DNA of 32,057 nucleotides, taken from NCBI GenBank assembly GCA_045594865.1, contig JAZNZI010000135.1:1-32057 (forward strand). Reading direction: 5' to 3'. The notes under the pieces were generated by a model that saw only the letters and a program-made list of their open reading frames with translations, had not been told where the DNA came from and did not search any database. A program made the translations under genes and the position numbers. How positions within the stretch are numbered: the first letter of the stretch is position 1; every line of letters begins with the position of its first letter. This stretch comes from Eubacteriales bacterium (lineage in GTDB: Bacteria; Bacillota; Clostridia; Oscillospirales; CAG-272). Shown in pieces: positions 1,915 to 32,057 of this stretch.

Positions 1915-2973
1915 ATGAGAAATTTGTCTATTTATTCACCGAAAATTAAGTTGATTTTGCTCTCGCTTATGCATCTTGTGACCGATGGACTGTGCGCGTA
2001 TCTTGCTTTTGTAAAGTTATATCCGGATAATCCCGAAGGGAGCATATTTATTTTCTTTGGATATAACATTTTAGCGTTCGTAACCCAGTCTCCTGTAGGA
2101 ATGATGATTGATAAATATAATAAGCCTAAGCTGTTTCTCGCGGTGAGCATTATTTCTATGATTCTCGGCTATCTGCTCAGTGATTTGTGGTTTTTGTCGG
2201 TAATATTTATTGGTATAAGTAATTCTATATTTCACGTCGCAGGCGGAAAGTACGTTAGCGACAAGAGCGGGAATGATATCTCGCATCTCGGAATATTCGT
2301 TTCTACCGGAGCCATTGGGCTTGTGCTCGGGCAAAGATATCTATCCTTCCTGCCCCTGCCTTATTTGCTCTTTTCCGTGCTTATTATTTGCGGACTTCTT
2401 GTGATTTTTTTCGAGGACAGCGAAACTAAGTCCTATCCGGAGGAATACGAGTCGAATAAAGGCGAAACGTATGCTATACTTGCTATAATCGCTGTTGTTG
2501 TGATACGCTCTTTTGTTGGAAAGGTAGCCTCGCCCGTCTTTCCCCTTTCGGGAAACATGTTTTTAGTTATGGCGATTGCAACAGCTCTCGGCAAGGCGGC
2601 AGGAGGTATCTTTTCCAAATTCATCGGAATTAAAGCTACCACATATATCTCAATGCTTGCCTCTGCGATCTGTCTGACGCTTGGAACGGAAAGTATACCG
2701 ATATTTATCCTTGGAATATTCGCATTTAATTTTTCAATGCCCATAACATTGTATTATGCAAATATTCTTATGAAGGGAAGCGAGGGGTTTGCTTTCGGCA
2801 CACTTGCTGCAGCCTTGATACCCGGATTTTTTATCGCTATGTCATTTACATATTCAACCGTTATGCGAGTAATCACAGCGATACTTTGCCTTATATCGAT
2901 GCTTATAATAATCATTGTTTCAAAGAGAATAAAAAATGCTGATAAAAGCTTTAGTATTAACAGAAATAATTGA
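1915..2973 (+). CDS. MFS-like multi-pass membrane protein (resembles FSR-annotated MFS transporters)
   Basis: About 11-12 hydrophobic segments in two halves, with HLVTD in TM1 and loop motif GMMIDKYN after TM2. The start is uncertain (1876, 1903 or 1915); ATG 1915 follows GGGGGAGAG and lies downstream of the predicted promoter. Confidence 0.7.
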   Translation: MRNLSIYSPKIKLILLSLMHLVTDGLCAYLAFVKLYPDNPEGSIFIFFGYNILAFVTQSPVGMMIDKYNKPKLFLAVSIISMILGYLLSDLWFLSVIFIGISNSIFHVAGGKYVSDKSGNDISHLGIFVSTGAIGLVLGQRYLSFLPLPYLLFSVLIICGLLVIFFEDSETKSYPEEYESNKGETYAILAIIAVVVIRSFVGKVASPVFPLSGNMFLVMAIATALGKAAGGIFSKFIGIKATTYISMLASAICLTLGTESIPIFILGIFAFNFSMPITLYYANILMKGSEGFAFGTLAAALIPGFFIAMSFTYSTVMRVITAILCLISMLIIIIVSKRIKNADKSFSINRNN

Positions 2974-3265
2974 GTGTATAGCACTCTATTTCCTTAAAGA
3001 ACGAGATAAAATACTATATGTATATTGGGTGGCGTTGACTGCATTTACCAACCTGTGTGCCAATCTTTATATTGTTCTTGTCTTTTCGGGAAATAATTTT
3101 CAGTATTGGTTGACGGCTGCTGTAATTGAGATTTTAGTCTTTATAAGCGAATTTCTATTCTGTCTTGCCTATACCAAAGATAAACTAAAGAGCGTTAAAT
3201 ATAGCGCTGTATGCAATATTTCCAGCTTTATTATTGGACTCATTTTCTTGCCATTATTTATTTAA
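2936..3265 (+). CDS. Small four-TM hypothetical membrane protein with LTxxxE / TN / ExxVxxxE / NxxS motifs
   Basis: 109-aa hydrophobic ORF overlapping the end of the MFS gene, with charged or polar residues regularly placed inside its helices. Confidence 0.75.
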   Translation: MLIKALVLTEIIECIALYFLKERDKILYVYWVALTAFTNLCANLYIVLVFSGNNFQYWLTAAVIEILVFISEFLFCLAYTKDKLKSVKYSAVCNISSFIIGLIFLPLFI

Positions 3266-3277
3266 GGAGGATACACT

Positions 3278-3424
3278 ATGTTTTCGCTTGATGTCTTGCC
3301 GCCATCACCGTCAGAAATTCTTTTTTATAGATTATCCGAGGCTGAGTTTACAACGGTACTTTGTGTCATAGGCGTTGTAATTGTGCTTATTCTTGGTATA
3401 CTTCTTTTTAAAAAGAAGAGATAA
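3278..3424 (+). CDS. 48-aa single-TM micro-protein MFSLDVLPPSPSEILFYRLSEAEFTTVLCVIGVVIVLILGILLFKKKR
   Basis: Translated by hand. AAGGAGG (3264-3270) lies 7 nt before the ATG and overlaps the upstream stop. The C-terminal hydrophobic helix is followed by KKKR. Paralogous to the next ORF. Confidence 0.8.
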   Translation: MFSLDVLPPSPSEILFYRLSEAEFTTVLCVIGVVIVLILGILLFKKKR

Positions 3425-3438
3425 TTTAGGAGGATATT

Positions 3439-3561
3439 ATGTTTTTACTTGATGTTTTAGTTTCGCCACTTGCGTTGCTGCTTTATCCACCGATCGGTAT
3501 TACTGTAGGTATAATAATTGCGCTGATAATAATTGTCACTATTCTCATAAAAAGGCGTTGA
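3439..3561 (+). CDS. 40-aa single-TM micro-protein MFLLDVLVSPLALLLYPPIGITVGIIIALIIIVTILIKRR
   Basis: Translated by hand. AGGAGG (3428-3433) lies 5 nt before the ATG. Shares the MFxLDVL start and the TM plus basic tail with the preceding ORF. Confidence 0.8.
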   Translation: MFLLDVLVSPLALLLYPPIGITVGIIIALIIIVTILIKRR

Positions 3562-3590: not shown

Positions 3591-3616
3591 AAGGGAGAAC
3601 CAACCGGTTCTCCCTT
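3591..3616. terminator. Probable bidirectional intrinsic terminator
   Basis: Perfect 11-bp stem AAGGGAGAACC/GGTTCTCCCTT with a 4-nt loop, between convergent genes. Confidence 0.8.
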
Positions 3617-3624
3617 AGATTTTA

Positions 3625-4026
3625 TTAATCCAATTTAAGCTTATCCCCACTACAATGACCGTCAAACATACCTGTCATATCGCAGGTAAACTTGCCGTCG
3701 TTTTCTTTGAATCCTATCGCGAGAAGCAGTCTTTCATCCGCGGCATCGCTGGCTGCCTCGCAGATATGCGCGCCGCACAGATCAATAAAGTTCATCGTCT
3801 GTCTTGCAAGGATAAACATTGCCTCAAAGTCGCCTCTCTCACCCGCTTCCTTAAGGTCAAATATGTATCCCACCTTGCCGATCTCAAACTGCGACATACC
3901 CATGATCTCGCCGCTGTCTATATCAAACATAACGTAGGCGAAGGCGTCCGCGCGGTATTTCACGCCGCACTCCTTGCATATTTCCTTTTGCTTCTCCTTA
4001 TCCTGAACAGGTGTGATCTTAAACAT
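3625..4026 (-). CDS. Hypothetical protein (133 aa, possibly GNAT-like fold)
   Basis: Start overlaps the rluB end, with GGAAG/AGGA-type RBS bases upstream. The pattern ...LLLAIGFKE... is reminiscent of GNAT C-terminal motifs. Function not assignable. Confidence 0.65.
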   Translation of the reverse strand: MFKITPVQDKEKQKEICKECGVKYRADAFAYVMFDIDSGEIMGMSQFEIGKVGYIFDLKEAGERGDFEAMFILARQTMNFIDLCGAHICEAASDAADERLLLAIGFKENDGKFTCDMTGMFDGHCSGDKLKLD

Positions 4027-4778: not shown

Positions 4779-5915
4779 TTAGTCAAATATAGATAGGATT
4801 CTTTCAAAAAATCCCTTGCTTTCCTTTTGGTTCACGCTTTCCAAGGCCACGAGAGGCACTCGTGCAACCTCTTCGCCGTCTGCGGTGTAAATGATCTCTC
4901 CAAGCTTTTCGCCTCTGCTAATGGGTGCAATTCCGTATTTAATAAGCCTTACGTGCTCGGTGATATATCGATCTCCCCGTTTTACGATTATATCGGCTCC
5001 GTCGGGATTTGCTACTGTAAGGTACTCGCTTTCGCCGTCAAGCAGGGGGATTTTATACATATGATCAAACCCGCGCGCCAGCGTGATTTTTTCAAGACTC
5101 TCAAAGCCATAGTCAAGCATTTTTTCGTGGTCGCTCCAATCGCTTGGCGCATCAAGAGTGACCGTGATAAAGGTAAGGCCGTCCTTTTCCGCTGCTCCGA
5201 CGAGGCATCTGCCGCTTTTCTTCGTGAAACCTGTCTTGATTCCTATGCATCCGTCGTAAAGGCGCAGCAGCTTGTTATGGTTAACGTAGGTGCGCGTTCT
5301 GTCCTCGGTGGCAAAGGTTTTCTTATAAGTAGAAGCAATTTTCCTGAAGGCGGGATTTTTCAGTGCCTCGGCAGCTATGAGCGAAAGCTCTCTTGCCGTG
5401 GTATAATGCTCATCATCGTCAAGTCCGTGGGGGTTAGTAAAATGCGTGTCGGTCAGACCAAGCCTGAAGGCTCTGTCGTTCATAAGGGCAGAGAAGCCCT
5501 CGATGTCACCGCCAATATGGCAGGCAATAGCCACCGCCGCGTCGTTTGCGCTTTGAAGCAGAAGCGCGTACAGAAGCTCCTCCATAGTAAGAACGTCGCC
5601 TAAGCGCAGATAGGCGGATGAGCCTTCGGTGCCTATAGCCGAATCGTCGATCTCAACAAGCTCGCTCGGGTCACTGTTTTCAAGAGCCACGAGAGCGGTC
5701 ATTATCTTGGTCGTACTCGCCATGGGCAGCCTTACGTCTGCGTTCTTTGAATAGAGGAAATTATCAATTTCAGGCTGATAAAGCACGGCAGACTTGGCAC
5801 TTACCGAAAACCCACCGCTTTTATGCTCACCGAAGGCATATATGGTGAGGAAGGAAAATATAAACGCCACTATCAGCAAAACGGCAATATATATACTTAT
5901 GCTGTTTCTTTTCAT
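4779..5915 (-). CDS. D-alanyl-D-alanine carboxypeptidase (peptidase S11, DacB/DacF-like)
   Basis: N-terminal signal/TM, MASTTK (SxxK), SAN (SxN), NPHGL, KTG and a PBP5 C-terminal domain. It lies in the scpAB...rluB context typical of sporulation DacB. Confidence 0.92.
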   Translation of the reverse strand: MKRNSISIYIAVLLIVAFIFSFLTIYAFGEHKSGGFSVSAKSAVLYQPEIDNFLYSKNADVRLPMASTTKIMTALVALENSDPSELVEIDDSAIGTEGSSAYLRLGDVLTMEELLYALLLQSANDAAVAIACHIGGDIEGFSALMNDRAFRLGLTDTHFTNPHGLDDDEHYTTARELSLIAAEALKNPAFRKIASTYKKTFATEDRTRTYVNHNKLLRLYDGCIGIKTGFTKKSGRCLVGAAEKDGLTFITVTLDAPSDWSDHEKMLDYGFESLEKITLARGFDHMYKIPLLDGESEYLTVANPDGADIIVKRGDRYITEHVRLIKYGIAPISRGEKLGEIIYTADGEEVARVPLVALESVNQKESKGFFERILSIFD

Positions 5916-13906: not shown

Positions 13907-14773
13907 ATGAAAGATTATATTATTAAAACCGAAAATCTCGGCTTTACCTATGAGGATTCCGCAGAGGAAAATTCATCCGAGATTCCCGCACTCATCGGGG
14001 TTAATATAAATATTGAGCGGGGCGAGTACGTTGCTATCCTTGGTCACAACGGCTCGGGTAAATCCACCCTCGCTAAGCTCTTAAATATGATACTTGCGCC
14101 TACCGTGGGAAAAATATATATCGACGGCACCGATATTACCGCCGAGGATTTCAGCGAGGATGACGTTTTCGACATCCGCCGCAAGATTGGTATGGTGTTC
14201 CAGAATCCCGATAATCAGCTTGTAGCTACTATCGTGGAGGAGGATGTTGCCTTCGGCCCCGAGAACCTCGGACTTCCTCGCGAGGAGATACGCAGACGGG
14301 TCAATTCCTCGCTTGCTCTCGTTGGTATGACCGAGTATGCCCGCCACGCACCTCACAAGCTTTCAGGCGGACAGAAGCAGCGCGTTGCCATAGCGGGCAT
14401 TATCGCTATGAAGCCCCAGGTTATTATCTTTGACGAGTCTACCGCTATGCTGGATCCTTTGGGCAGACGCGAGGTGGTGGATATTATGGAGCGCCTTAAC
14501 AGAGATGAGGGTATAACCGTTCTTAATATTACTCACTATATGGAGGAGGCTGCAAAAGCCGACCGCGTTATCGTTATCAACGACGGTAAAATTGCCCTTG
14601 ACGGAACTCCGAGAGAGGTGTTCGGTCAGGTGGATAGGCTTCGTTCTATGGGACTTGAAGCGCCTCAGGGCAACGAGCTTGTGCTTGAGCTGAAAAAGGC
14701 AGGACTTAAAATTAACGGTGAATCTCTCACCGAGGATGAGTGTATTGAAACACTCTATAAACTTCTTTCGTAA
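13907..14773 (+). CDS. ecfA1: Energy-coupling factor transporter ATPase A1
   Basis: GHNGSGKST, VFQNPDNQ, LSGGQKQR and FDEST; lies in an ecfA-ecfA'-ecfT-truA cluster. Confidence 0.93.
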   Translation: MKDYIIKTENLGFTYEDSAEENSSEIPALIGVNINIERGEYVAILGHNGSGKSTLAKLLNMILAPTVGKIYIDGTDITAEDFSEDDVFDIRRKIGMVFQNPDNQLVATIVEEDVAFGPENLGLPREEIRRRVNSSLALVGMTEYARHAPHKLSGGQKQRVAIAGIIAMKPQVIIFDESTAMLDPLGRREVVDIMERLNRDEGITVLNITHYMEEAAKADRVIVINDGKIALDGTPREVFGQVDRLRSMGLEAPQGNELVLELKKAGLKINGESLTEDECIETLYKLLS

Positions 14774-14790
14774 GATGAGGAAAGCAAAAA

Positions 14791-15654
14791 ATGAATGATA
14801 TTCTAAGAGTAGAAAACCTTTCCTACGTTTACGGAAAGGGAACACCCTTTGAAAAGGTTGCGCTTGATAATATCAGTGTCTCCTTTGTAAAGGGCAAAAT
14901 CACAGGACTTATCGGTCACACAGGCTCCGGTAAATCCACACTTGTAAATTTGCTTAACGGACTGCTGAAGCCCACCTCGGGTAAGGTCTATCTTGACGGC
15001 AAGGATATTTGGGAAAATCCCAAGGAAATATCCAAGATCAGATTTAGAGTAGGCCTTGTTATGCAGTATCCCGAGTATCAGCTTTTTGATGAAACCGTAA
15101 GAGCCGATATAGGCTTCGCCCCCCGCAACCTCGGGCTATCCGACGAGGAGATAGAGGAGCGGGTTAATTTAGCCGCCCGCTTTGCAGGCATCGAAGCTGA
15201 TATGCTTGATAAATCCCCCTTTGAGCTTTCAGGCGGACAGAAGCGCCGCGTTGCTATCGCGGGTATTATCGCTATGCGTCCTGACGTGCTTGTCCTTGAC
15301 GAGCCTGCGGCGGGTCTTGATCCTCGCGGCAGACGTGAGATTCTCGGCAGCCTTCGCAATTATGCCGAGAGTATGAACGCCTCTGTAATCCTCGTCAGTC
15401 ACTCTATGGAGGATATGGCGCATTATTGCGACAACGTAGTTGTAATGAATTCTGCCAAGGTTTATCGTACGGGAACTGTAAAAGAGATCTTCTCGGAGGC
15501 AGACGACCTTATATCCGTTGGACTCGACGTTCCTATGATCGCTCGGGTTGCGGGCGAGCTTGTAAAGCGCGGTATTGACCTTAAGGGTGAGCTTTATACC
15601 GTTGAGGGAGTTAAGGCGGCAATACTTGAATACGTAAAGGAGGGTGGAAGATGA
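14791..15654 (+). CDS. ecfA2: Energy-coupling factor transporter ATPase A2
   Basis: GTPFEK, GHTGSGKST, QYPEYQLF, SPFELSGGQKRR and LDEP. Confidence 0.93.
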   Translation: MNDILRVENLSYVYGKGTPFEKVALDNISVSFVKGKITGLIGHTGSGKSTLVNLLNGLLKPTSGKVYLDGKDIWENPKEISKIRFRVGLVMQYPEYQLFDETVRADIGFAPRNLGLSDEEIEERVNLAARFAGIEADMLDKSPFELSGGQKRRVAIAGIIAMRPDVLVLDEPAAGLDPRGRREILGSLRNYAESMNASVILVSHSMEDMAHYCDNVVVMNSAKVYRTGTVKEIFSEADDLISVGLDVPMIARVAGELVKRGIDLKGELYTVEGVKAAILEYVKEGGR

Positions 15655-16511
15655 TTTCTGATATTACCCTCGGTCAATTTTTCCCTGGATACTCACCTAT
15701 ACACAGGCTTGATCCCAGGACAAAGATCATTCTTGCAACGTTGTTTATCATAGCTGTATTCGTGGCGGTAAATCCCGTAAGCTTCCTTTTGCTTACCGTG
15801 CTTACACTTGTGCTTATTGCTATTAGCCGTATTTCCTTTAAGGTGATATTGAAAAGCATAAAGCCTATAGTTTTTATTCTACTTTTCACGGCTCTTATTA
15901 ATATCTTTATGACCAAGGGCGAGGGAACACCTCTCTTGTCATTCTGGATCATAAATATTTATGAGGAGGGTATTGCCAGAGCGGTTATGATGGCGCTTCG
16001 CGTTATTATTCTCATCGTGGGTACCAGTATTCTCTTAACCTATACCACGTCACCTATTTCTCTGACAGACGGTCTTGAGTCGCTTCTTTATCCATTGAAG
16101 AAAATAAACGTACCAGTCCACACCTTTGCAATGATGATGTCTATTGCGCTCAGATTTATCCCCACTCTCGTGGAGGAGACCGAGAAGATTATGAACGCGC
16201 AGAAATCCCGCGGAGCAGACTTCACCTCGGGTAGTCTCGTTCAGCGCGCAAAGGCGCTTATTCCTCTTCTCGTTCCGCTGTTCGTGTCATCCTTCAAGCG
16301 GGCAGAGGAGCTGGCAACGGCTATGGAGTGCCGATGCTACAGAGGTGATAAAAACAGAACCAAGCTTGTAAAGCTTGAATATCACGGCTGTGACTTTGCA
16401 TTTATGTCGATTTTCGCGCTTCTCCTTGCAGGAATTATCTGCCTTGCAATTTTGCCTTATAATTTTGAGTCCTTCGGCATAATTTATGATTTGCTATTCT
16501 ACAGGGTATAA
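15651..16511 (+). CDS. ecfT: Energy-coupling factor transporter T component
   Basis: HRLDPRTK, ALRFIPTL, AQKSRG and AMECRCY. Confidence 0.93.
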   Translation: MISDITLGQFFPGYSPIHRLDPRTKIILATLFIIAVFVAVNPVSFLLLTVLTLVLIAISRISFKVILKSIKPIVFILLFTALINIFMTKGEGTPLLSFWIINIYEEGIARAVMMALRVIILIVGTSILLTYTTSPISLTDGLESLLYPLKKINVPVHTFAMMMSIALRFIPTLVEETEKIMNAQKSRGADFTSGSLVQRAKALIPLLVPLFVSSFKRAEELATAMECRCYRGDKNRTKLVKLEYHGCDFAFMSIFALLLAGIICLAILPYNFESFGIIYDLLFYRV

Positions 16512-29327: not shown

Positions 29328-29410
29328 GCGGGCGTGGCGGAACTGGCAGACGCGCCAGACTTAGGATCTGGTGGATTTCCGTGCAGGTTCAAGTCCTGTC
29401 GCCCGCACCA
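29328..29410 (+). tRNA. tRNA-Leu (anticodon TAG)
   Basis: Acceptor stem GCGGGCG/CGCCCGC plus ACCA, D-loop GGAACTGGCAGAC, anticodon arm CCAGA-CTTAGGA-TCTGG, long variable arm and GGTTCAAGTCC T-arm. Confidence 0.97.
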
Positions 29411-29455
29411 TATCGAGTGTTCATAACGAAAGTGATGAACACTCGATACTTTTTT
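29411..29455 (+). terminator. Strong hairpin/terminator directly after tRNA-Leu
   Basis: 14-bp perfect stem TATCGAGTGTTCAT/ATGAACACTCGATA followed by a T-run. Confidence 0.85.
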
Positions 29456-29511
29456 GCCTTAGCTTTCAAATATTGTGTTGTTTGTGAGCAGGTTTTCTGC
29501 ACCTTTTTCTT

Positions 29512-29845
29512 TTATACCGCTATTGCTTGGTAGGTTACGGAAACACCTTGTCTTGTATCGAGGGTGTGCTTTACTTGCGGTGCATCGGGTATCTCCACGC
29601 AACCGACGAAGCGGTAATGAATGACGATCTGCTGCACTCTCGACTTGCCCGTTCCTGTGATGTGATGAACCTCTATCTTGTCAATCAGTTCGTGGAGCAT
29701 TGCGGGTGTAAGCGTTTGCATTTCCATAAATCTCCGTACCGCCTTGATAAAATTGTCCTTTGAGGTTTTCATTCCGTCAAGCTCGCTCAGACGTTCCCGC
29801 AAAGCGAGGATTTGTTTCTTCAAATCACTCTGCTCGGTATCGTTT
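29512..29845 (-). pseudogene. C-terminal fragment (DUF4368-like) of a large serine recombinase, TnpX-like
   Basis: EQSDLKKQI coiled coil then LTPAMLHELIDKIEVH...RVQQIVIHYRFVG. The catalytic, recombinase and Zn-ribbon domains are absent, and the frame closes shortly upstream. Confidence 0.75.
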
Positions 29846-30016
29846 ATGTGCGGGAAAATTATTTTCCAAAATTCTTCCGAAACGGCTTCTCATACTGTGT
29901 CCGTTTCCTTCTCGAAATTTGCTTTTGACAAGATACATAACGCCATTGAAGTGATAGACCGTATTACTTTCGGGGATAAGGATGCGCCTTACGTTCTGTT
30001 TTGGGTTTTCTCTCAA
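29825..30016 (-). CDS. Small TnpW-like transposon-encoded protein, 3' end probably altered by deletion
   Basis: AAGGAGG RBS (30033-30027) and a TTG start overlapping the upstream TGA. The pattern NGVMYLVKSKF...MRSRFGRIL resembles small proteins found upstream of recombinases. Confidence 0.45.
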   Translation of the reverse strand: MRENPKQNVRRILIPESNTVYHFNGVMYLVKSKFREGNGHSMRSRFGRILENNFPAHKRYRAE

Positions 30017-30135
30017 AAAGACCGATCCTCCTTATCATCTCGTTTTCTTTGCCAATCTTCAAGTAGCTTAAAGATCGTTTCCGTTATTTGCTTCGGTGTA
30101 TAACTGCGCGGGAAATACTTTTGAATATCGTTATA
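30013..30135 (-). pseudogene. C-terminal tail of a mobile-element ParB/RepB/Spo0J-like protein
   Basis: KYFPRSYTPKQITETIFKLLEDWQRKR resembles, from recall, the C-terminus of ParB-like proteins of clostridial integrative elements. Confidence 0.55.
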
Positions 30136-30695
30136 AGCTTCTATCTTTGTACCGTCTACGAAAAGATTCTTGAATTTAACCTCTCCCATTTCATAAAGCT
30201 TATTTACAAATTGGTAGAACAATCCCTCTATTGCTTCGGATAATTTCTCATCCTCAAATCTTGAAATTGTTGCGTGACTTGGCGCAGGCTCTCCGTTTAA
30301 GAGCCACATAAAGCGTATATCCGTTTTGCAGGCTTCAGCAATAGCTCTTCCGGAATACAAGTGCTTCATATACCCATACACAATTACCTCAAATATTGTG
30401 ATTGGATTCACCTTTCTCCAATTGCGAAGATACGTATTGAACAGTTCTGTATAATCCAAGCTCTCGCAAATTTCCGCTACTTTGAATACAAAATCTCCCT
30501 CGGGAATACAAATTCCTAAATCTAACGGTAAAACTACTTGATTTTTTCTTTCATTGTTGTATAATTACCTCGCTGCTTTGTGTTGGTTATTTTTGGCGAT
30601 TTAATTATACTAAAAAGCAAGCGGATGCTCAATACCTTTCGGTAAAAAGCATCCGCTTTTTTCTTTTTTACAGGCTATCTTAATGAGACAGCCCC
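30136..30695 (-). mobile_element. Truncated IS1182-family element (left end plus transposase N-terminus)
   Basis: QVVLPLDLG...ESLDYTEL...YGYM..YSGRAIAEACKTDIRFMWL..PAPSHATISRF...FVDGTKIEA (DUF772 plus the first DDE Asp). There is a probable frameshift in the A-run near 30545 and hairpins at 30619-30658 and 30673-30693. Boundaries are approximate. Confidence 0.8.
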
Positions 30696-30701
30696 TTTTA
30701 A

Positions 30702-32057
30702 TTAAACAGTAGCCGTTTCGGGCTTGTTCGTTTTCTTGCTTTTGATTCTGTCAATGATCTTGTAGCTGAGAAGCGTAATGCCAATAAAGGCAAAATTCAG
30801 CGCAGTGAAAAGAACAAAGACGGTGACTACAAGGATAGGATATATCTCAAATTTGCCGAACTGCCAGTGAACAAGACCTGTAAAGCCTGCAAAGGGGAGA
30901 TAGTCAACGGCAACCTCGGGACTGAACATATAGAAATGGTTAACAGAGTATCCCGGCACGCCGTCAATACCGTTGATTATCGTACCCAAAATAAAGATGA
31001 AGACAAAGTAGACCACAAATATTCTTATCATATTCTTGAACGCGCTCTTATCAAGCCTTGGGAATACGCCGAGAGAAACTCCGAGAACGGGGAACATAAC
31101 CACGAAGCTATGCTCGTAAATATAGTGCATAGGCCAGAATGAAACCGCGTCAACGTCAAAGGTGAACAGAGTTATTGCAATCGCCGCTCCAACCAGATTT
31201 GCAACGTAGCCGAAATCAAACATTTTCTTATCTCTTGTGATTATTATATAAAGATAGAAGAATGCGGCGATATTGCAAAGCTGAAGCGGAAGTCTTGAAA
31301 AGGTAAATCCGCGTAAGAAGGGAGACAGGGTATGCATAACCTGCGCGATTACCATAAATGATAAGAACGTGAACTTATCCTTTTGGCTGCGCTTTCTGAA
31401 CACGAAGTGAAGCACGACGATCTCCGTGATAAGCGCGCCAATCCAGATGAAATGAAGGTTGCCGAACATTTTAGCAGAAAGTCCCATATTATCGAAAAGG
31501 GTTTTCGGTATATATGAGGGCATCATCTGCATCATAATTAGCGGAGTAATGCCGAGAAGCATAAGTATCTCTCTCGGTGTTTTCATGCTGATTTTATGCT
31601 TGTAGGTAAGCTTCATAAGCACGGGAATGATAATAGCAAATATCAGCTCAAGGGTATATAATACGTGCCTTACGTGAACGTTGATATATTCTCCGCCTGC
31701 GCCCTCTGCTGTAAAGTATGCAAAGGTGTCGTCATAAAGTATAGCGGCAAGTATGCTTACAGGTAGGGAAAAGTAGCTTGCAATATTGCGGAAAAGTCTG
31801 CTGTCAAAGAACACGGACATAGGCAGAACCGCATATCCAATATGATATGCCCAGCGCATAAATGACTGCAGGGGATCATCCAAAGGACCGACCGTTTCTA
31901 CGAATGAATCGGAAAGAAAGTATCTGACTACTCCCATCAGACAGAAAGAGACGGCGAGTATTTTTAATACAAGCTGTGGATTAATCTTATTCCACTTTTC
32001 AAAAGCATACTTTAATGCTAAAATTGCAATAATCGAAAGACCTATAGTGATTAAAGT
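30702..32057 (-). CDS. Multi-pass membrane protein with a C-terminal YwaF/TMEM164-like domain, 5'-truncated by the window edge
   Basis: The frame stays open from 31937 to 32057. Motifs HFIWI, LPLQLCNIA, YEHSFV and NHFYM, with many TM segments. Confidence 0.7.
   Translation of the reverse strand, partial: TLITIGLSIIAILALKYAFEKWNKINPQLVLKILAVSFCLMGVVRYFLSDSFVETVGPLDDPLQSFMRWAYHIGYAVLPMSVFFDSRLFRNIASYFSLPVSILAAILYDDTFAYFTAEGAGGEYINVHVRHVLYTLELIFAIIIPVLMKLTYKHKISMKTPREILMLLGITPLIMMQMMPSYIPKTLFDNMGLSAKMFGNLHFIWIGALITEIVVLHFVFRKRSQKDKFTFLSFMVIAQVMHTLSPFLRGFTFSRLPLQLCNIAAFFYLYIIITRDKKMFDFGYVANLVGAAIAITLFTFDVDAVSFWPMHYIYEHSFVVMFPVLGVSLGVFPRLDKSAFKNMIRIFVVYFVFIFILGTIINGIDGVPGYSVNHFYMFSPEVAVDYLPFAGFTGLVHWQFGKFEIYPILVVTVFVLFTALNFAFIGITLLSYKIIDRIKSKKTNKPETATV

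Follow-up and report, generated by a model that had tools for sequence, protein, structure and literature searches.

Small proteins with a single membrane-spanning helix can serve as subunits or modulators of transporters, and KdpF, AcrZ and MgtS are described in this role in passages of PMC12648545. Small proteins that expose their N-terminus outside the cell are inserted by way of YidC, in dependence on the charges of the N-terminal region, as PMC8548208 and PMC8920935 report. The locus considered here lies in a stretch of 32,057 nucleotides from an Eubacteriales bacterium of the Clostridia (assembly GCA_045594865.1, contig JAZNZI010000135.1, positions 1 to 32,057), referred to below as the window. 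Four consecutive genes of this stretch, designated X, Y, S1 and S2, encode a divergent membrane protein resembling the major facilitator superfamily (MFS), a small protein with four transmembrane helices, and two micro-proteins of one family, S. The S genes are almost certainly real and part of one cassette with X and Y. Because X and Y are fused in nine related loci and one natural fusion of Y to S exists, S is read as a small subunit of an X-Y-S transporter complex, whose N-terminal motif would lie at the outer face of the membrane beside Y; this reading is put forward as probable, with modest assurance.

Both micro-proteins, S1 (MFSLDVLPPSPSEILFYRLSEAEFTTVLCVIGVVIVLILGILLFKKKR) and S2 (MFLLDVLVSPLALLLYPPIGITVGIIIALIIIVTILIKRR), begin with M-F-x-L-D-V-L, carry a proline three to five residues past the aspartate and possess a single long hydrophobic stretch. 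The original prediction, made from this DNA without database searches, had described them as two unannotated open reading frames (ORFs) of 48 and 40 amino acids, each behind an AGGAGG ribosome-binding site, with DNA likeness at that site and the first codons. Reading of the sequence confirms the ORFs and their sites (Table 1), and in the alignment of S1 and S2 DNA the identity is concentrated in the ribosome-binding site and the first six codons and scattered elsewhere. The word 'unannotated' applies to the names and not to the gene calls: near-twins with 98% identity are present in the public protein set as unnamed predictions (P0001 for S1, P0149 for S2), and a single-sequence search with S1 had such a near-identical twin as its sole match. 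Within the window, a relaxed pattern of motif, transmembrane helix and basic tail is found in 2 of 910 ORF starts (25-160 residues, both strands), which are S1 and S2; these two are also the only ATG-initiated ORFs of 30-70 residues with GGAGG 5-13 nucleotides upstream and a hydrophobic run of at least 17. S belongs to no family in Pfam, NCBIfam, PHROGs, PADLOC or the PDB sequences, and its sub-threshold matches stem from the helix and the basic tail. S1 scores 12.6 bits against the Pfam model Gram_pos_anchor (cut-off 20), 14.7 bits against the NCBIfam model LPXTG_anchor (cut-off 15.9) and 11.3 bits against the phage coat model Gp8 (cut-off 24.6), S2 matches no anchor model of Pfam or NCBIfam, and the S profile retrieves from the PDB sequences only generic helix-plus-lysine stretches of unrelated single-pass proteins (best E 0.016).

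X, Y, S1 and S2 form a tight co-directional operon in which S1 and S2 are the last two genes. X and Y overlap (Table 1), and gaps of 12 and 14 nucleotides precede S1 and S2, respectively. To place this arrangement among relatives, an alignment of X homologues was used as bait in one scan of genome contigs, which returned 30 loci (L001-L030) whose record titles name uncultured Clostridia or Eubacteriales, Ruminococcus, Lachnospiraceae, Prevotella or Bacteroidales and a few others. A canonical S directly follows Y, or an XY fusion, in 22 of the 30 loci, from both Bacillota and Bacteroidota. All 12 closest Bacillota loci (L001-L012) have it in one or two copies, as do ten Bacteroidota loci (L014-L019, L022, where the contig end cuts it, L023, L025 and L030). 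The gap before S ranges from 10 to 98 nucleotides and is at most 31 nucleotides in 18 of 23 sources (the window and the 22 loci). A stricter S pattern matches 24 of 8213 ORF starts (22 ORFs) in the window and the 30 loci (264,812 bases, both strands); all lie directly downstream of Y or XY and none elsewhere. This pattern was written from these same S sequences, and only its specificity is to be taken as a control. The two micro-proteins are paralogues of one family, as the original prediction had it, and they are not free-standing but the terminal genes of a conserved X-Y-S cassette. Of the other eight loci, two (L020 and L027) lack Y, two (L026 and L028) combine a distant Y-like gene with other small membrane ORFs, L013 and L024 show Y without S, L021 has a variant form of S, and the contig of L029 ends 229 nucleotides past a Y-like ORF.

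Gene fusions also tie the parts of the cassette. X and Y form a single ORF in 9 of the 30 loci. In the X tree the Bacillota rows group together (support 92/97), and X and Y are separate genes in each of them; the Bacteroidota rows make up a clade (support 100/99) that is fused apart from one re-split group. At least two changes between the fused and the separate state are needed. The 167-residue protein P0268 is a natural fusion of Y and S, in which Y is followed directly by the motif MFLDVIAEP, a helix and a lysine-rich tail, and in P0291 the N-terminus of Y bears MTILDAIAP, a peptide resembling the S motif. A separate arrangement is seen in L021, where tandem variant small ORFs (5304-5525 and 5522-5674) follow the XY fusion and share a hydrophobic N-terminal stretch before LILMDVV. 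A C-terminal helix with a basic tail is present only in the first of them; the second lacks a helix, and a histidine-kinase-like gene comes after it.

Table 1. Coordinates of the X-Y-S1-S2 operon and its signals, in positions of the window
Feature	Position	Strand	Description
X	1915..2973	+	divergent MFS-like membrane protein, 352 residues from ATG 1915; ORF opens at GTG 1876
Y	2936..3265	+	109-residue protein with four transmembrane helices and invariant polar core; start overlaps end of X by 38 nucleotides
S1 ribosome-binding site	3265..3270	+	AGGAGG, read from the sequence; 7 nucleotides before the S1 ATG; overlaps last base of the Y stop codon (TAA 3263-3265)
S1	3278..3424	+	48-residue micro-protein; MFSLDVLPPSP motif, acidic linker, one transmembrane helix, KKKR tail
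S2 ribosome-binding site	3428..3433	+	AGGAGG, read from the sequence; 5 nucleotides before the S2 ATG
S2	3439..3561	+	40-residue micro-protein; MFLLDVLVSP motif directly into hydrophobic stretch, KRR tail
Intrinsic terminator	3591..3626	+	11-bp stem, loop of 4 (hairpin 3591-3616), T-rich tail; closes the operon

The S family extends well beyond these loci. A profile of 16 Bacillota S sequences, run against a set of 5.8 billion proteins, recovered 45 further small proteins (34 at E<=1e-3), all unnamed except for one 'hypothetical protein', and 44 of them have the motif. Pooling these 45 with the 26 sequences of the window and the loci (without the two identical copies of L001) gives 71 entries, or 67 unique ones after merging of duplicates; the motif is present in 66 of the 67, the exception being an N-terminally truncated entry. 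In their common build, M-x-x-L-D-[VI]..P at the N-terminus leads into a linker, which may be absent or up to about 110 residues long, and then into one transmembrane helix and a lysine/arginine tail; the family is defined by this motif, this build and the gene order. The aspartate occurs in all 66 motif-bearing members, a count that is partly by construction as the sequences were anchored on it, and it is residue 5 in 56 of them. A proline 2-5 residues past the aspartate is likewise found in 66 of 66, a leucine before it in 58 and a valine or isoleucine after it in 52. In MAFFT alignments M1, D5 and P10 are invariant among the Bacillota sequences and M1, L3 and D5 among the Bacteroidota ones. 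The codons of the motif vary synonymously across loci (TTT/TTC for phenylalanine, CTT/CTC for the second leucine, GAT/GAC for the aspartate and all four valine codons), and selection therefore acts on the protein. The ratio of non-synonymous to synonymous substitution rates (dN/dS, Nei-Gojobori) of S is 0.16 for the pair L002/L005 (14 synonymous and 9 non-synonymous changes) and 0.22 for L004/L006 (6 and 4), small counts in both cases; for X it is 0.10-0.15 in the same pairs and 0.42 between the window and L001 (12 differences), and for Y 0.21-0.56. Purifying selection on S is shown by these sequence comparisons, in agreement with the selection on the N-terminal motif that had been proposed originally. 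In the Bacillota loci S is preceded by a Shine-Dalgarno sequence of the GGAGG or GGAG type. The Bacteroidota S genes are devoid of such a sequence, as is usual for genes of that phylum.

The two copies of the window derive from an old duplication, as the original prediction had suspected. Two S copies exist in six sources (the window, L001, L003, L007, L008 and L011). The first has a polar acidic linker in all six; the second has none in the window, L001, L003 and L007 and a short one in L008 and L011, and single-copy genomes may hold either type. Copies of the same type are 40-56% identical across genomes and the two copies within one genome 25-34%, rough values given the short sequences, and the duplication is regarded as old because same-type copies of different genomes resemble each other more than the copies of one genome do. 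S1 is identical in L001 and S2 differs there by one synonymous change; the closest other copies are those of L002 (44%) and the first of L003 (42%) for S1, and those of L004 (50%) and L002 (47%) for S2.

The first partner, X, most likely starts at ATG 1915, because GGGGGAG precedes this codon and the resulting length of 352 residues is typical of the homologues. It scores 33.1 bits (E 3.8e-8) against the Pfam model MFS_1, whose cut-off is 33.4, and the label PF07690 is precomputed on many of its homologues. No match to X was obtained in NCBIfam, PHROGs or PADLOC, and its profile finds nothing among the PDB sequences at E<=1. The 341 homologues are mostly 352 residues long, and 5 of the 120 listed bear the JGI name 'FSR family fosmidomycin resistance protein-like MFS transporter'; look-ups in the Atlas with the stored homologues gave only MFS-like or 'hypothetical protein' clusters. 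The hydropathy scan indicates 12 transmembrane helices with a charged central loop, 17 lysines and arginines on the cytoplasmic side against 4 outside, and both ends inside the cell. TM1 contains invariant histidine, aspartate and cysteine residues. The X parts of Bacteroidota, be they fused or separate (L014-L019, L021-L025, L030), end after helix 11 and are without the twelfth helix of the Bacillota proteins; in that phylum TM1 of Y might stand in for helix 12 of the MFS fold.

The second partner, Y, has no match in Pfam (E<=1), NCBIfam, PHROGs, PADLOC or the PDB sequences, and the Bacteroidota Y of L018 is likewise without a Pfam or NCBIfam family. It nevertheless represents a large family, its profile reaching 4294 representative proteins at E<=1e-3 and 805 at E<=1e-10. 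Among the best 150 of these 4294 matches, 32 are at least 331 residues long with Y at the C-terminus and 105 are stand-alone proteins of at most 135 residues. An alignment of 48 rows has 10 invariant columns, including the buried polar residues T, E, T, N, E, E, N and S; T38, E72, N94 and S97 are invariant in Y, and T9, E13, N39, E65 and G101 nearly so. Loops 1 and 3 of Y contain seven lysines and arginines, while the N-terminus, loop 2 and the C-terminus contain none. Both ends of Y are predicted to lie outside the cell because the basic residues are all in loops 1 and 3 and because the X parts and XY fusions place the ends of Y there. Comparison of Y with X by hhalign reveals no relation. 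The two halves of Y (TM1-2 and TM3-4) match each other weakly in hhalign (probability 14.6%, E 0.0018), in an alignment that pairs the glutamates of TM1 and TM3, the two basic loops, and TN with CN; this hints that Y may be an internal duplication of a two-helix hairpin.

The orientation of S can be read from its charges. The part before the helix is net negative in 61 of the 66 motif-bearing members, and the tail is positive (+2 to +9) in all 66; in P0154 the non-negative N-terminal part (+1) results from a mis-called start. The fusion proteins point the same way. In P0268 the S motif follows an end of Y predicted outside, and the S helix then returns to the cytoplasm with its basic tail. The XY fusion of L014 (3992-5311) has 15 transmembrane helices, a lysine/arginine distribution of 19 against 4 and its C-terminus outside. 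From the charges, the Y-S fusion and the topology of Y and XY, it is likely that S has its N-terminus outside and its C-terminus inside. The N-out/C-in arrangement deduced earlier from the positive-inside rule is accordingly plausible for the family at large and is at variance with one clade, discussed below. The further suggestion that the motif is displayed to the exterior of the cell fares less well: given the conserved X-Y-S cassette, docking on partner proteins is the more likely use of it.

The observations can be assembled into a model in which S, having no signal peptide, would enter the membrane N-out/C-in in the manner of the small proteins that depend on YidC, and its helix would pack as a subunit against Y and X. 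The N-terminal motif would then come to lie at the outer face, beside the two predicted external termini of Y, where it may complete, cap or gate the complex, and S1 and S2 would be alternative or co-resident isoforms of the subunit.

Several facts weigh against this model. L013 and L024 keep a canonical Y without S. Fusions of S are rare, P0268 being one of the best 150 matches to the Y profile, and this protein could reflect a lost stop codon or a sequencing error. The 80-residue protein P0159 (one member, on one contig) is an apparent fusion of an S1-type and an S2-type protein, in which the first helix runs straight into a second motif, LLDMLNP, and a second helix; such a two-helix topology is at odds with the N-out/C-in model, and P0159 may be a deletion or an assembly artefact. 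A profile-profile comparison between Bacillota and Bacteroidota S aligns only the six motif columns (probability 32%, E 4.7e-4), and the link between the phyla therefore rests on motif, build and gene order and not on homology along the whole length. The genes around the cassette vary from lineage to lineage and do not point consistently to any one function. An acidic residue near the N-terminus is general in N-out tails, so that insertion, and not docking, may account for part of the motif. Finally, the S proteins of L014, L015, L016 and L019, which form one Bacteroidota clade (support 96/88), have lysine/glutamate-rich N-terminal parts of 94-117 residues with a net charge of +9 to +13; such parts are hard to export without a signal peptide, and the positive-inside rule would place them in the cytoplasm. 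In these four proteins (L014:5346-5750, L015:1809-2237, L016:4136-4582, L019:5348-5731) a lysine/glutamate-rich linker of about 60-90 residues separates the LLD motif from the helix; it is probably coiled-coil-like, with KKAEKK-type repeats, and the only PADLOC matches are low-complexity coiled-coil ones to the S of L016.

The same clade speaks for the opposite orientation, in which the cassette is unchanged and S is tail-anchored with its N-terminus inside. The LLD motif would then be a tethered plug on the basic loops of Y or on the cytoplasmic mouth of X, and the linker its leash. The free variation of linker length is what a leash would allow, and the two conserved loops of Y, being basic, are possible partners for the invariant aspartate. 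Such an arrangement is rather unlikely in view of the charge distribution of the family, of the XY fusions, which end past an odd number of helices, and of the fusion proteins, where the motif stands after the C-terminus of Y (P0268) or before its TM1 (P0291), both ends being predicted outside. A different role within the same operon, that of a transient regulator or assembly factor of X-Y instead of a stoichiometric part, overlaps with the subunit reading. Modulation of transporter stability is attributed to MgtS and MgtR in passages of PMC12648545, and the two loci with a canonical Y and no S suggest that X-Y may work alone. The presence of S in all nine XY-fusion loci and all 12 closest Bacillota loci, its tight spacing in the same operon and the existence of fused forms speak against this role, which keeps a low probability.

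It can also be asked whether S is cargo, that is, a precursor peptide (pheromone-, bacteriocin- or sorting-signal-like) processed by Y at the conserved motif and exported by X, or a membrane-active peptide against which X-Y protects. Tandem small peptide genes beside a transporter do resemble peptide-export loci, the S2-type succession of motif, helix and basic tail looks like a bare C-terminal sorting signal, S1 obtains weak scores with the LPXTG-anchor models, and the buried invariant glutamate and asparagine of Y could be catalytic. These anchor scores, however, stay below the cut-offs, and S lacks a motif of the LPXTG type. Its own motif lies 10-110 residues from the helix in most members, and cleavage there would free only about 5-9 residues. 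The Y-S and motif-Y fusions suit a subunit better, the cassette is kept in two phyla under purifying selection similar to that of X, PHROGs and PADLOC give no matches for X, Y, S1 or S2, and no protease, kinase or ABC-type partner is consistently nearby. A cargo role is judged very unlikely. The last alternative, that the S ORFs are chance or non-coding, for instance a 3' untranslated region or a regulatory RNA of the X-Y operon, could invoke their shortness and the striking conservation of the DNA at the ribosome-binding site and first codons. Frameshifts or a loss of the aspartate/proline motif in relatives would, by the original prediction, have told against the genes; instead, the ORFs remain intact in 22 loci from two phyla, and where their lengths differ they do so by whole codons. 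The synonymous variation in the motif, the dN/dS values, the Shine-Dalgarno sequences at the right spacing, the absence of pattern matches elsewhere and of any Rfam match at S reduce the probability of this explanation to a negligible level. Two narrower candidates were rejected. A type IV pilin-like N-terminus, brought to mind by the phenylalanine and the acidic residue within a hydrophobic N-terminal region, does not fit, S having no basic leader, no glycine before the phenylalanine, its basic residues at the other end and no linked prepilin peptidase gene; a type I toxin is at odds with the conserved sense operon with X-Y and with the fusion forms.

The preferred reading of S as a subunit can be taken one step further, to a more tentative idea that we consider doubtful. 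The element that does the work may be a free N-terminal peptide of the form Met-hydrophobic-hydrophobic-Leu-Asp-hydrophobic, which would have to lie at the outer face beside TM1 of Y. An extension of Y would provide it in cis and S would provide it in trans, the trans form being obligatory with an XY fusion. S would then be the detachable cap and last helix of a split protein of 16-17 helices, and its alpha-amino group and aspartate, together with the buried glutamates and asparagines of Y, may form part of a substrate or ion site or of its gate. All nine XY fusions, in which the N-terminus of Y is not free, have S. Ten distinct Bacillota loci with S were compared (L001 is a near-copy of the window and does not count among them), and the N-terminus of Y is short in nine, L004 being read from a later ATG at 5025; the Y of L006, the same ORF as that of L004, is listed from the first ATG only and so has an 8-residue extension. 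Four loci with a Y or Y-like gene and no canonical S carry an N-terminal extension of Y with aspartate or glutamate at residues 2-5, beginning MALEIVIN, MNTDDLLIA, MEGLWSA and MFGDILSN, and L017 is exceptional in having both an extension and S. Fisher's test of extension against S (4/4 versus 1/12) gives p 0.0027 for loci that are not phylogenetically independent. Among stand-alone Y proteins, aspartate or glutamate occurs within residues 2-6 in 38 of 72 extended N-termini, where about 24% would be expected from composition, versus 4 of 20 short ones. Acidic N-terminal tails are common in N-out proteins, and the view of the acidic Y extensions as a cis counterpart of S is suggestive only. Should the cis/trans relation hold, nature would here offer a clear case of a transporter part that can be either a domain or a separate micro-protein, in a modular split architecture that is not known from MFS-type transporters.

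The substrate of such a complex can be approached through the neighbouring genes, which offer a weak lead towards an acyl compound or a lipid. In L023 the start of XY is overlapped by the gene of a FadD-like ligase, acyltransferases of the TMEM164 type are encoded nearby in L003, L009 and L011, and so is a PlsC-like acyltransferase in L013. Alpha/beta hydrolases are found upstream in the window, L004 and L010, and L001 and L006 have a similarly sized ORF at the corresponding position. There is some likeness to the lplT-aas pair of E. coli, which we take to be a lysolipid-transporter arrangement. Other lineages have ClpB-like, RnfC-like, GH97 or PFOR genes beside the cassette. An equally weak lead towards a cation comes from the buried glutamates and asparagines of Y and from the histidine, aspartate and cysteine of X. 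Two of the loci also encode, upstream of X, a large protein in which a MatE efflux domain is joined to a cytidylate-kinase-like domain, Cytidylate_kin2 (L003:24-2018 and L009:1805-3889); the TMEM164-type membrane acyltransferase follows this protein in L003 and precedes it in L009.

The operon is closed by the terminator listed in Table 1, whose fold has an energy of -21.5 kcal/mol (z -4.56) and was equalled in stability by none of 200 shuffles. The terminator is shared with a convergent gene on the minus strand (3625-4026, 133 residues) that belongs to no family at useful E-values. An ORF of like size stands at this position in L001, L004, L007 and L008, and in L012 as well (136 residues, listed on the plus strand). 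A search of Rfam over the whole window at the gathering threshold returned one tRNA, at 29328-29407, and nothing else, and no riboswitch or other RNA was found upstream of X in the window and 16 loci. In a search of three loci, a match to the Gut-1 RNA family (RF01706) was detected in L005 (3734-3808, plus strand), 48 nucleotides past the S stop, with 50.5 bits against a gathering value of 50 (E 1.7e-7); it has three hairpins with GUGAA after each. At E<=0.01 neither L002, a close relative of L005, nor L001 shows such a match, and the window has none at the gathering threshold. Outside the operon the window has the ordinary gene content of a chromosome from a spore-forming member of the Clostridia, with tgt, ScpA/B, Lon, RuvC, penicillin-binding proteins and YtfJ among others. 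After the tRNA follow, on the minus strand, a DUF4368 fragment (29512-29823) and an ORF with a DUF772 transposase domain (30013-30459), and this stretch (29328-30456) looks like a mobile-element remnant at a tRNA. A TMEM164-family protein of 410 residues is encoded at 30702-31937. Genes of the energy-coupling factor (ECF) type (13907-16508) lie on their own, 10 kb from the cassette. No plasmid match was obtained by tblastn with an XY fusion.

Comparison with described systems places S in a known functional class. No literature on the family was found in searches that covered small membrane proteins, accessory subunits of MFS transporters and the small proteins of microbiomes, and the motif string 'MFLLDV' occurs in no paper, the supplements of small-protein catalogues, which may list the family unnamed, being outside this search. 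The LPXTG-type sorting signals share with the S2 type a short motif, a hydrophobic helix and a lysine/arginine cluster. They differ from S, which lacks an N-terminal signal peptide, a passenger domain and any motif of the LPXTG type, and whose own motif is at the extreme N-terminus and often far from the helix; the cassette holds no sortase or exosortase homologue. Y, for its part, resembles the SMR protein EmrE in its length of about 110 residues, its four transmembrane helices and its conserved TM1 glutamate. Unlike SMR proteins, Y has no Pfam match, shows a one-sided lysine/arginine bias that implies a fixed topology, possesses additional invariant glutamate, asparagine, threonine and serine residues, and is fused to an MFS-like protein in many genomes.

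A parallel in architecture is offered by CbiN/CbiM and NikN/NikM of the cobalt/nickel importers of the ECF type, where a small membrane partner adjoins the main component and is fused to it in some genomes. The binding site of these systems includes a free N-terminus that reaches into the protein. S and its partners are unrelated to them in sequence: X is MFS-like instead of an ECF S-component, the cassette is not linked to an ECF ATPase or T component, and S and Y lack the metal-binding histidine. With respect to topology, most S proteins share with the YidC-dependent proteins of the Pf3-coat type a short acidic N-terminal tail, one transmembrane helix, a basic C-terminus and the lack of a signal peptide, a likeness of topology class only, from which the four Bacteroidota S proteins with strongly basic N-terminal parts depart. 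Small subunits with an N-out/C-in orientation do exist, as passages of PMC12648545 indicate for CcoQ and CcoS of the cbb3 oxidase.

Annotation routinely misses micro-proteins of fewer than 50 residues, and only a few of them can be assigned a clear partner. S is a micro-protein family with an invariant motif, which gene order and gene fusions connect with two particular membrane proteins, and the large nameless Y family of 4294 representatives makes the cassette a sizeable uncharacterised membrane system of gut anaerobes. S is a new small-protein family of a known general kind, the micro-protein transporter subunit. The likeness to KdpF, AcrZ, MgtS and MgtR lies in a length below 50 residues, a single transmembrane helix and, probably, an action through a larger transporter; S1 and S2 have 48 and 40 residues, one hydrophobic helix each and a place at the end of the X-Y operon. 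According to passages of PMC12648545, KdpF has its gene within the operon of its transporter and stabilises the complex. The KdpF/AcrZ kind is a functional class and not a sequence family, and its members have no sequence relation to S. Compared with them, S is distinguished by an invariant N-terminal motif followed by a variable linker, by partners that are an MFS-like protein and a protein of four helices, to which its binding is inferred, and by a cassette that spans two phyla with its parts fused in some genomes and split in others.

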